Below, piece after piece: positions 34,460 to 64,000 of a stretch of DNA of 64,000 nucleotides. The notes under the pieces are model-generated. The model was not told the DNA's origin. It saw only the letters and a program-made list of their open reading frames with translations, and made no database searches. The position numbers and the translations under genes are program-made. Each line of letters begins with the position of its first letter. Position 1 is the stretch's first letter. Source of the DNA: Malacoraja senta (lineage: Eukaryota); the NCBI GenBank assembly GCA_038087875.1, contig CM075992.1, positions 684,001 to 748,000 on the forward strand, in the 5' to 3' direction.

Positions 34460-34807
34460 ATCCAGCTGTTCAAAGGTCAAGGCCACTTCCAGACACCATT
34501 GAGCTTTGACGGCATCCACATTGTGAACCACATGGTGGAAGACGACGAGTTCATTCACTCCTCAGACGAGGATCTATTGCCGAGCCCCATGGGAGTGAGC
34601 GGCCTACAGGGAGATCTGTACCCCATTTCCCACGGAAACGGCCACTTCCTCCGCGGCCTGGAGATGTCGGGGAAAGACAGCGACGGCAGCACCGACAGCG
34701 ATCAGGAAAACCGCAACTCTGCACTGGAGCTTGAAGCAGACATGGCCAATCACATCATGTGTAATGACAGTCCGAACAAGGCACCATCCATCTCTACAGC
34801 CGTCTAA
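34460..34807 (+). CDS. EVI5L: EVI5-like terminal coding exon (IQLFKGQGHFQTPLSFDGIHIVNH...KDSDGSTDSDQE...PSISTAV-stop)
   Basis: GCAG acceptor, TAA at 34805-34807; SSDEDLL, LQGDLYPIS..HFLRGLE...KDSDGSTDSD parallel the recalled EVI5L C-terminus. Confidence 0.92.
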   Translation: MQLFKGQGHFQTPLSFDGIHIVNHMVEDDEFIHSSDEDLLPSPMGVSGLQGDLYPISHGNGHFLRGLEMSGKDSDGSTDSDQENRNSALELEADMANHIMCNDSPNKAPSISTAV

Positions 34808-37800
34808 TGGGGGGACCTCATGATCTAAACTGCCCTGCATTCCACCAAGTGAAACTGATTTGGGTCTGATATTCAATTCCACTCATTTGTAGGGGAGTTT
34901 TATTTTTTAAATCACCCATCTCCCTCTCTATTTCAACCTGACATTTCTTCCCATTGAGGGAAATAGGTGGGGAGCTAGAGCGTTGTGAAAGTGGCCCAAT
35001 GTCTCTGCTATGTTTTCTGCAATGAAGATTCCATGACAGATGAGTTTGCGGCTCCACTGTGGTGCTCTGTTTTTGTGGAGTAACCCCCAGTCTTCCATGT
35101 GTAGTGCAAAAGCAGCAAGTCAGCACTTAAAGGTCAAGGGTATGAGCCTGGGGATTGTTGGAATTCAGGCCATGTCTCCCACCGTTGCTCCTTGGCCTGA
35201 CACAGCGGTGGACTCTGCATTTGGATTCTCAGCAGTAACCCACCATCGCCAATATGCGGTGGTCAAACAAGAGGCCGCACAACCCACCTGCATACATGTA
35301 ATGGACACCTAGTTTGGTCTAGCTGAAAGCACTCAATACTCTAACAGGGTACCAGATTGTCATGGAGCCTAATGACAATAGACAGGGTCTAACCCATCTC
35401 CTGATTGCTTTAGAATCTCATTCCACTCGGTATCTGGCTGATGCACTGACCTTTGCTAGAAGCTAACTAACACGGTGATTGGAGCTCTGCCTTCGTAGTA
35501 CAGTACATTTCCATCACCGGTCATTGAGTTAACTTCCTATTAACCAGTTGAAATTAAGCTTGTTGGTAAATATAACGCAGCTCAAGAAAAGTTCCTACAG
35601 CTAAGCAACGCACTCTTGAATATTCCAGCCTCTCACTGCTTGCTCATCTATTTATTAAACCAGAAAATGTTCACTAGCTTTGATGTCTGAAGTTATGAAA
35701 GTAGACTTTTTTGACATTAATCTGTGGACTATTGTTAGCTTGTTTTAGAGTTTTTAATCTGTGGTTGATACAAGTACACACTGCCTGCACTAAAGCCCTG
35801 AGCTGATACCGTTTCCACCTATTATGCCCCAAACATAGACAGCTAAACTCCAGCATTGTATAACTGGGTCCTGTCATTCAGCAAACCTAGTGCACTCCCC
35901 ACTCCACAGTAAAAATGTGCAGGCGGTTGAAGTCATTCCAAGTTCGGATTCTAAGGCTGGACCATTGGATCGTTGATAGACACAAAATGCTGGAGTGACT
36001 CAGCGGGACAGGCAGCATCTCTGGAGAGAAGGAATGGGTGACGTTTCGGGTCGAGACCCTTCTTCAGCAGTTTGTGTCTACCTTTGATTTAAACCAGCAT
36101 CTGCAGTTCTTTCCTACACATTGGATCGTTGATGTCCACTCAACAAACCAGCATTGTAGCCTCCGTTCAGCATTTGTTTCACCCAGAGTACACTTGCAAA
36201 TACCCTCCTGTTACGTCTCGGAACCCATTGTGTTACTTATGCAAATTATTGGCCATTAATTGTATTGTAATCCTTCGGAAAAGTAGGACTGGAAGTTTTG
36301 CAAAACCACGTCTGCTTTGGTTTTAGCACCTCTGTTGGAGATGACTATTTGGTGGATGCAGCAACACCTTTGAAGCACGATGTGGTCAGCTTATCTGTTC
36401 ATTAGTTACCTATGTAATACTTTTACAATGATGCTCATTTTATTTGTGCTGCAGTGATATTTATTCATCCTTAGCGTCTATGCTAAACTTTACAAACTGC
36501 CTGGATGCTGGAGTCGGCATTGCTTGAGGAACACTGCATGGGAGGGAGGATTTTGTAGACCCATGAGCTCTCATTTGTATGAAGGTACATTTGCTCTTAA
36601 TGCCAGTATCCCCAAGGGTGCACTCAAGCAATTGCCCAACTGATACAGTAACCACCCATCACTTGATGTTGAATTGACTTCCGATTACCCGATTGGCATT
36701 TGGTCCACTAACAATAGAAATCACAAGGGAAATTCCCCTCTTCCCAAGCAACATAACTGAGTTGTCAAACCTCTTGTTTCTTGGGTGGTAATGAAGCTGA
36801 TAATGTAAAGTGTCCATACTCCAGCCACCTGTCCATATGCCTGACCGCAACACCTGTTCCCTTCTCCAGTGCCATGGTTTTACTTTATATCGTCAAGTCC
36901 AGCAACATTCTGCCACCCATTGTCCAGGCACAGCGAGTGGGTCCCCATGCACTTTATTCCACATTGCATCACGATGAACACAGTTAACATATACCGGCAC
37001 GTCACTTAAAATCTCCTGGTCATTTTATCAGGACCAGGCCAGATCCAAAATATTCACTATCTTGTTTTAGTTGAACTCCTTTTCATTTTGTCAGTATCAT
37101 GAGCAGAGCAGTGTTTGTCTATTAGTGGAGAACTGTGTCACTCTGAGGGAGGTGGCAGTGTGGGGGGGGGAGGCTTAGTTTGGTTGGTCTCTCCCTGCCT
37201 CTGCCAAACTTCCTAATTAACCAAGGAACACCTTTATCGGTGGGGACTGCTATGGCTGAATCTACCCTTGTTCACATCCTTAAATAATCTAGAATTAGCC
37301 CTTCAGCACGGCGGTACTTAAGATATTGAGTTAGAATGAAGTCACTGGATGTGCGCCGAGTGTATTATGACGCTCACTGACATTACAAACCGTCTCATTT
37401 TAGCTCTGTGAAAAGTGCTGACTATCACATTTTCTTTCATGGTTCTTTTCCAACTATTTTGCCCCAAGCTTAGACAGCTGAGCTCCAGCATTCTATAACT
37501 GGATACCCAACTGCTTGGAGTCTCTCATTGCCAATAAACACACCTCCTCCCAAGAACCAAAGATCTCGCCTAACGCTGAGCATAATGACACTTGGGAGCG
37601 GGGTCTGGTGCCATTAATCACACGTCAGGAGAAGGTGTGTGCCATATGTATAGAGTCAACCACTTAGTTTGTGCCGCAGGTATGTCCACCCCTGATATAG
37701 AATGAGCTCTCTTTGTTATAACTGACACATGACCGCTGCAGTGTTGCCTCAGGCATCTTGTAACGTCATTGTTCAGAGCTCACGCATTCATTGGTTTGGG

Positions 37801-63650: not shown

Positions 63651-63893
63651 CTACCATGCAAGTACTCAGTTCCTCCACAATTGGTGTGACGGGATGCTGG
63701 GGCGTGAGGTTTGGCCGCTGAGACCTTGCCAAGATCGTTCCCTCACAGCAAGAGCTAACGAAGGGATACATAACGGCATTACATGCTCAAGCAGTAACCT
63801 ATTCCTTCTCTCCGGAGATGCTGCCTGAGCCGCTGAGTTACTCCAGCACTCTGTGTCTGCCTTTGGCATTAAACCTTCATTCTGTTTCAGCAG

Positions 63894-64000
63894 GAGAAGA
63901 GTTTCAACTGCAAGATCTGTGGGAAAAACTTCAAGCGTTCCTCTACGTTGTCCACACACTTGCTGATCCACTCGGACACCCGTCCATACCCCTGCCAGTA
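63894..64000 (+). CDS. GFI1-like: GFI1-like coding exon 5 (partial), ZF3 and start of ZF4 ([35 protein letters not shown]...)
   Basis: Tandem CAGCAG acceptor (start at 63891 or 63894); almost identical to GFI1/GFI1B ZF3; truncated by the window edge. Confidence 0.95.

Follow-up and report, generated by a model that had tools for sequence, protein, structure and literature searches.

Locus and structure of the GFI gene

The window, a stretch of 64,000 nucleotides (nt) from the genome of the skate Malacoraja senta (G000:C16:684001-748000), contains the 3' part of EVI5L followed by a gene that we propose to be a third member of the GFI family, alongside GFI1 and GFI1B. Positions are counted from the first nucleotide of the window, and the gene model also draws on sequence past its end. 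The proposed third GFI gene has six coding exons encoding a SNAG domain, a linker and six C2H2 zinc finger (ZF) positions:

56418-56517, plus strand: coding exon 1, encoding the SNAG domain, in which position 8 is Arg
58704-58961, plus strand: coding exon 2, linker; its terminal motif aligns with W..PSPS of GFI1
61530-61768, plus strand: coding exon 3, linker with LKHLVEDY, then the first half of ZF1 (initial Cys replaced by Ser in skates)
62627-62770, plus strand: coding exon 4, remainder of ZF1 plus ZF2; exceeds its GFI1 and GFI1B counterparts by two residues
63894-64059, plus strand: coding exon 5, ZF3 and ZF4; the window covers 63894-64000 only
64690-64892 (G000:C16:748690-748892), plus strand: coding exon 6, ZF5, ZF6 and stop codon; wholly outside the window

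All five introns are of the GT-AG type, and the exons form an open frame of 369 amino acids ending in TAG, with an AATAAA about 40 nt past the stop. A preliminary description of the window had reported a gene with SNAG and C2H2 domains and the in-phase exon structure of GFI1, about 21.6 kb downstream of an EVI5-family gene and on the same strand. The model agrees with it: 21,610 bp separate the EVI5L stop codon (34807) from the ATG, all of the named motifs that were scanned lie where they had been placed, and none of the remaining ZF exons, which might have been disrupted, interrupts the frame. The database protein P0002 is 94% identical to the window protein across 369 amino acids and matches it in exon content, which is far beyond chance.

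The preliminary description had also called the SNAG domain and ZF1-2 strongly diverged. This was borne out, whereas ZF3-6 are 92-93% identical to GFI1 and 87% identical to GFI1B. Compared with a ray and a shark orthologue, the window protein is 98-99% identical over ZF3-6 and 44-63% identical in the region before ZF3, a pattern that makes constraint on ZF3-6 clear. Six fingers are present in sharks, most rays and the coelacanth (six Pfam stretches in P0020). In the three skate sequences ZF1 has lost its first Cys, a change absent from the preliminary description, leaving five intact fingers; the corresponding codon does not vary in three further DNA runs. Exon 4, encoding ZF1-2, is skipped in five database isoforms from rays and skates (P0003, P0009, P0015, P0126 and P0127).

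The loss of this Cys raises the alternative that the skate gene is decaying toward a functionless pseudogene. The skate branch is also long (0.35 in the 50-row tree described below), and half or more of the linker changes are non-synonymous (5/9, 4/8 and 8/9 of the exon 3 codon differences to relatives), a share that would be expected for a weakly constrained linker. Decay sits poorly with the open frame, the canonical splice sites and the contrast between ZF3-6 and the region before them. The exon 3 frame is likewise open in the three further DNA runs, in which insertions measure 3 nt within exon 3 and 4 nt in the flanking intron. We therefore regard decay as highly improbable.

Several repeats accompany the gene. 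Long (GT)n-type repeats lie upstream of exon 1 (53510-54220), (CA)n-type repeats in intron 3 (61790-62110) and a short tandem array at about 62325-62530. The start of intron 5 (L011:560-900) holds several degenerate copies of the exon 5 end, coding for His-Thr-Phe-Ile-His-Thr-Gly and including the donor; these are possible cryptic donors.

Relationship to GFI1 and GFI1B

A search with P0001 returned 2111 proteins, of which the best 120 were listed, and more members were added from clusters. In a quick tree of 50 rows, excluding fusion tails, isoforms and other GFI1 matches, the window protein, 17 shark and ray proteins and the coelacanth protein P0020 fall on one side of a split with a Shimodaira-Hasegawa-like approximate likelihood ratio test (SH-aLRT) support of 100. 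These 19 third-type rows stand apart from 30 GFI1 rows, 13 of them from sharks and rays. The zinc finger gene thus lies in a group of its own outside GFI1, as the preliminary description had anticipated. A 29-row tree included the zinc finger tails found on EVI5L models of gar and cypriniform fish (see below). It joined them to the third group at 100/100 and placed them next to the coelacanth at 98/93, the inner split separating cartilaginous fish from coelacanth plus gar and cypriniforms. Approximately unbiased (AU) tests rejected both a duplication confined to chondrichthyans (p=0.00014) and a joining of the tails to ray-finned GFI1 (p=0.0008). A finger-only tree of 16 rows under a mixture model again united the third group with the tails (95/96), and a grouping of tails with GFI1B was rejected (p=0.019).

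The trees support placing the gene, on its predicted protein, in neither GFI1 nor GFI1B but in a group predating the split of sharks and bony fish. The age of this third member would be about 420 million years. Third-type protein and GFI1 occur together in Scyliorhinus canicula (P0017, P0434), Mustelus (P0013, P0435) and the coelacanth (P0020, P0044). The preliminary description had seen a paralogue retained in cartilaginous fish. Its presence in sharks and rays stands; its confinement to them does not, the wider survey of EVI5L loci having found third-type genes or fingers in sharks, rays, the coelacanth and gar, and fingers on cypriniform EVI5L models as well. No tetrapod or lungfish copy is among the best 120 of the 2111 matches, where diverged copies could rank lower.

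A finger-exon search of the skate assembly (best 150 of 5677 and of 8071 candidates) gave two strong loci, the present one on C16 and one at C11:21.88 Mb. The C11 gene (21.86-21.88 Mb) adjoins TSC1 and GTF3C5, the neighbours of GFI1B, and is GFI1B because of these neighbours; exon 2 was searched for in this model and not found. A GFI1B orthologue was accordingly rejected as the identity of the third gene, the TSC1/GTF3C5 locus lying on C11. A GFI1 orthologue was rejected on the separate tree group, the same-species GFI1 genes on other contigs and the EVI5L neighbour. As a separate observation, the SNAG domain of skate GFI1B (G000:C11:21863889-21864000, L017) has Lys at position 3 and departs from GFI1 after position 9, in contrast to the published description of a SNAG that hardly varies between human and zebrafish (bioRxiv 10.1101/519090).

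The EVI5L neighbourhood and probable origin by genome doubling

The gene upstream occupies the following positions, its TBC exons sitting 20-30 kb upstream of the window:

9516-9632, 10373-10516, 11537-11692, 18514-18660, 24546-24641 and about 26310-26411, plus strand: EVI5L coiled-coil exons
34460-34807, plus strand: EVI5L last coding exon, containing the motif G-S-T-D-S-D

Across eleven exons (seven in the window, four upstream), 579 of 596 residues are identical to a named skate EVI5L. Identity to full-length bony-vertebrate EVI5L is 63-75% (coelacanth, lungfish and axolotl 73-75%), against 53% to the single EVI5-type sequence compared, P0135, which we take to be EVI5. The EVI5L tree, two partial rows excluded, mirrors the species tree. 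A TBC exon search found 4117 proteins; among the 120 listed, named matches from sharks, rays, chimaera, coelacanth, lungfish, amphibians, gar and birds are mostly EVI5-like. The identification of the upstream gene as EVI5L rather than EVI5 in the preliminary description is thus upheld. The motifs on which it relied fared less evenly: the five scored are all absent from P0135, but each full-length EVI5L row has one to five of them.

Gene order, read from about 380 kb, is two GoLoco exons, XAB2/SYF1, CAMSAP3, a Tctex-1 gene, EVI5L, the third GFI gene, TRAPPC5, a GMIP-type RhoGAP gene, an NXNL-like thioredoxin gene and COLGALT1. CAMSAP3 was called at 137 bits versus 120 bits for CAMSAP1. The GoLoco exons are presumably PCP2-like and the thioredoxin-like gene NXNL1, and we take 19p13 to be the human location of these EVI5L neighbours. 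The Tctex-1 gene, on the minus strand between CAMSAP3 and EVI5L (L040:860-1027, G000:C16:604860-605027), may be another retained paralogue with no human counterpart at that place. Human 1p22.1 holds RPAP2, GFI1, EVI5 and RPL5 (PMC4891075). One cattle interval lists CAMSAP3, XAB2, PCP2, TRAPPC5 and EVI5L and no named GFI gene, with some genes unnamed (PMC8505495). The third gene may have been lost in mammals, this one cattle list naming no GFI gene and the best 120 of 2111 matches including no mammalian copy.

The C11 contig that carries GFI1B also has CAMSAP1 and a COLGALT relative, and further CAMSAP and COLGALT copies, a third of each, lie on other, high-numbered contigs (C4250 and C2357). 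The paralogous blocks therefore share the pairs EVI5L/EVI5 and CAMSAP3/CAMSAP1 and COLGALT paralogues, the coelacanth being the exception to their placement on separate chromosomes. Third-type records share a contig equal in length to that of an EVI5L record in 15 of 18 cases and GFI1 records in 1 of 21, a match of lengths that indicates the same chromosome and not adjacency; for the remaining 3 of 18, no EVI5L record of matching contig is among those listed. In sharks and rays, canonical GFI1 lies on contigs other than that of the third gene. Set against the 19p13 and 1p22 paralogons, the flanking genes fit a whole-genome-duplication sister of the EVI5-GFI1 block (the 19p13 placement being our presumption). 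Two TBC exons on C11 are doubled with equal scores, 27.7 kb apart (G000:C11:21680292-21711473), and a similar double lies at C3:61180450/61239019; these are either tandem or assembly duplications.

We propose, with a probability of about 0.85, that the gene is intact and represents a third jawed-vertebrate GFI paralogue, apparently new to the literature and likely the sister of GFI1 from the second round of vertebrate whole-genome duplication (2R). The preliminary description had proposed the same kind of origin, and it gains support from the neighbourhoods, the paralogues beside GFI1B and the AU rejection of a chondrichthyan-only duplication (p=0.00014). An ancestral EVI5-GFI pair would have doubled at 2R. 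The alpha copy would have become EVI5-GFI1; the beta copy would have become EVI5L and the third GFI gene, evolving faster and disappearing from some tetrapods, if not all. The older sister, from the first round (1R), would be GFI1B. For linkage groups L and M, the skate-genome paper (PMC10115646) pairs LER10 (1-alpha, chicken 8), LER39 (1-beta) and LER31 (2-alpha, chicken 17), marks the fourth M slot 'missing in all gnathostomes?' and describes beta segments as evolving faster and losing more genes. By size, the large chromosome carrying GFI1, the 12-Mb chromosome of the third gene and the 28-Mb contig of GFI1B would suit these slots.

Several points weigh against this proposal. The first concerns rooting. 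The trees are unrooted and contain one GFI1B row (our own model, lacking exon 2) and no invertebrate or cyclostome outgroup. GFI1 never forms a clade against GFI1B in any of them, and the single GFI1B row is unplaced. An outgroup search with coelacanth GFI1 against 50%-representative proteins gave long poly-finger proteins and no named GFI1B, Senseless or cyclostome sequence; a full-length skate GFI1 query of the Malacoraja assembly was likewise dominated by such proteins. With the family thus left unrooted, it is synteny and the linker motifs that carry the sister relation to GFI1. The third-type and tail branches are long, and their attraction could add to the support for the group; the EVI5L fusion is positional evidence independent of long branches.

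The second is the apparent absence of canonical GFI1 from this assembly, in which ZF-exon and linker queries turned up no relevant locus other than C16 and C11; EVI5 was likewise not found with the queries used. Of the separate EVI5-GFI1 and GFI1B loci that the preliminary description had expected, GFI1B is therefore present on C11 and EVI5-GFI1 was not found. It had also reasoned that an upstream gene of EVI5 type, with no other EVI5-GFI1 locus, would indicate a fast-evolving GFI1 orthologue; the upstream gene is EVI5L, and no other EVI5-GFI1 locus was found in the assembly. The absence is likely an assembly gap, because RPAP2 and the essential gene RPL5 were also not found (there was no positive control for the RPAP2 query, and RPL5 queries matched only in archaeal controls). 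Canonical GFI1 is present in Leucoraja, Amblyraja and Rhinoraja, on contigs of 61-70 Mb. The Malacoraja counterpart of human 1p22/1q25 seems to be fragmented in the assembly or partly absent from it. It is scarcely credible that the third gene is a GFI1 orthologue evolving fast, or GFI1B under a wrong name, as the database names 'Gfi-1-like' and 'Gfi-1b-like' of its relatives might suggest: GFI1B lies separately on C11 beside TSC1 and GTF3C5, and the coexistence of GFI1 and the third gene in Scyliorhinus canicula, Mustelus and the coelacanth already refutes it unless those records are mislabelled.

The third is the coelacanth, in which GFI1 (P0044), the third gene (P0020) and EVI5L (P0453) share one contig of 172,207,807 bp, the accession numbers of EVI5L and the third gene being 13 apart. 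This arrangement would suit a local or segmental duplication of the EVI5-GFI pair before the jawed-vertebrate split, with no genome doubling, and the trees date the split while saying nothing on mechanism. Such a duplication would leave unexplained why GFI1 and EVI5L lie on different contigs in the shark and ray records, gar and zebrafish, why GFI1B is accompanied by paralogues of the neighbours CAMSAP3 and COLGALT1 (CAMSAP1 and a COLGALT relative), and why the published skate chromosome quartet has matching alpha and beta slots (PMC10115646). A later chromosome fusion in the coelacanth would be a simpler account of the exception, and we consider local duplication very unlikely. The 172-Mb contig may itself be a fusion of two sister chromosomes.

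Predicted function, EVI5L-finger models and known systems

SNAG domains and recognition helices were compared across 168 GFI-type proteins, in which isoforms are included and records are not independent, P0132 being assigned by tree position. Positions 1-7 of the third-type SNAG match GFI1. All 27 third-type records that include a SNAG have Arg at position 8, where the other 118 records all have Lys. The ZF4 and ZF5 helices equal those of GFI1 in 45 of 45 third-type records; the ZF3 helix served as the selection filter and hence is no test of membership. Among PDB matches of this strength, the Gfi-1 structure 2KMK alone consists of a single passing stretch covering ZF3-5, its total score lying below those of long poly-finger proteins; a PDB search with the 25-residue SNAG gave no match.

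Because the ZF4 and ZF5 helices equal those of GFI1, ZF3-5 would be predicted to read the GFI site. Retention of P2-R3-S4-F5-L6-V7 makes LSD1 docking through residues 2-7 likely, while R8 in place of K8 would permit no lysine-8 methylation. SNAI1 has Arg at the corresponding SNAG position and probably still binds LSD1. We lean slightly toward the third-type SNAG binding LSD1 independently of K8 methylation. Doubtful, though worth stating, is the alternative that the third GFI protein is a weak repressor competing for GFI sites. In GFI1 and GFI1B, DNA binding falls to ZF3-5 and partner binding to ZF1, 2 and 6, and LSD1 binding is abolished by either of the SNAG substitutions P2A and K8L (bioRxiv 10.1101/519090). 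The partner-binding fingers are eroding separately, ZF1 in skates and ZF2 in ray-finned fish. As a natural K8R variant, the third-type SNAG offers a test of whether lysine-8 methylation is needed in LSD1 recruitment.

In the database models of ray-finned fish the third gene appears in another form. C2H2 domains are present on six EVI5L matches among the 120 listed (of 4117). With cluster look-ups there are at least 17 fused cypriniform records, one cluster having given 15 of its 20 members. The 17 come from 12 species, zebrafish included (P0407, P0222, P0404, P0218, P0411, P0415, P0416, P0422, P0423, P0215, P0426, P0427, P0221, P0430, P0431, P0214 and P0409), and gar adds one more (P0228). In all 17 cypriniform records the junction is identical, G-S-[TS]-D-S-D followed by D, where unfused forms continue with G. 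Skate EVI5L has this motif in its last exon, with no GT donor after it. The cypriniform tails match skate exons 3-6, without the SNAG; ZF1 and ZF3-5 are kept, ZF2 is decayed, and all end at the same place after ZF5, with no ZF6. A position of the third gene next to evi5l is thus well supported for these fish.

Whether cypriniforms make a fused EVI5L-finger protein, as the database models predict, stands at about even odds, and so does the opposing account, in which the fusions are annotation read-throughs and a separate third GFI protein is made instead. Read-through would explain the garbled junction of the gar fusion, where other gar EVI5L models are unfused, and the lack of any transcript-derived (Logan) fused protein among the matches or cluster members listed. 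Unfused EVI5L forms are present in three of the four clusters read, and gene-model pipelines can carry a model over from one species to another. In the ESM Atlas, the zebrafish tail lies closest to a 305-residue 'Gfi-1-like' cluster of 323 chordate members, which hints at stand-alone versions. On the other side, all 17 records, drawn from 12 species and covering both duplicates of two suckers, share one junction, which, judged from the protein models, would fit an alternative donor inside the last EVI5L exon; the kept fingers and uniform stop also argue for a real product. Separately, zebrafish si:ch211-239f4.6 shares its clone prefix with evi5l and has been seen in a fin proteome; it is a lead only.

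A bolder combination, offered tentatively, would have the third GFI gene surviving in the zebrafish group as an alternative EVI5L end, three GFI genes in the ancestral jawed vertebrate and, in sharks, rays and the coelacanth, an R8 SNAG acting independently of methylation. If so, zebrafish would have a so far unrecognised fourth protein binding GFI sites, which could compete with gfi1aa, gfi1ab and gfi1b or sequester their targets. The fusion would join a Rab GTPase-activating (Rab-GAP) and coiled-coil protein to GFI fingers that are intact for DNA binding, but would lack a SNAG. A trafficking protein that captured a transcription-factor domain in this way would be a rarity, and gfi1 mutant studies and evi5l knockdowns would likely have overlooked these fingers.

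In current teaching, the GFI family consists of two genes, GFI1 and GFI1B, that control blood lineages and hair cells. An additional member alters the ancestral state of the family and the naming of many 'Gfi-1b-like' entries, and would be a candidate regulator for the blood organs and electroreceptors of sharks and skates. Gfi1 is expressed in sturgeon ampullary organs (PMC10982350). Literature searches on GFI1 paralogues, ohnologues and EVI5L found no third GFI gene, with subscription journals and Ensembl gene trees outside their scope. The term 'gfi' is absent from the available text of PMC11979771, and gfi1 is not named in the available text or searchable supplements of PMC10115646, whose list of 68 ohnologues lay outside that search. 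Prior recognition of the gene is possible. It is already present in databases as pipeline-predicted 'Gfi-1-like' and 'Gfi-1b-like' proteins (Narcine, Mustelus, Scyliorhinus canicula and Latimeria XP_014341498), and filed under EVI5L as 'EVI5-like protein' isoforms with C2H2 domains (Danio XP_009291813.4); these entries do not treat it as a separate paralogue.

In its history, as a beta-segment copy with faster evolution and patchy loss, the third gene resembles the ohnologues that cartilaginous fish retain and some bony lineages have lost (wnt6b, cspg5; the 68 cases of PMC10115646). With GFI1B it shares the domain plan and the borders of the last three coding exons (138/166/182 nt in the C11 model, 144/166/203 nt in the third gene). 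Its isoforms skipping the ZF1-2 exon are reminiscent of the short GFI1B isoform. It differs from GFI1B in contig and neighbours, in the exon 3 linker motif, which the C11 model lacks, and in SNAG position 8, where GFI1B keeps Lys. Among the closest known systems is GFI1 (gfi1aa and gfi1ab in teleosts), with which it shares the SNAG-linker-six C2H2 plan, the ZF3-5 helices, aligning linker motifs and an EVI5-family neighbour. In contrast to GFI1, the third gene adjoins EVI5L rather than EVI5 and has R8 in place of K8. It also has a ZF2-ZF3 spacer of 9-10 residues (seven in GFI1), a different ZF6 end, a shorter linker and, in skates, a broken ZF1, and it forms a separate tree group that coexists with GFI1.

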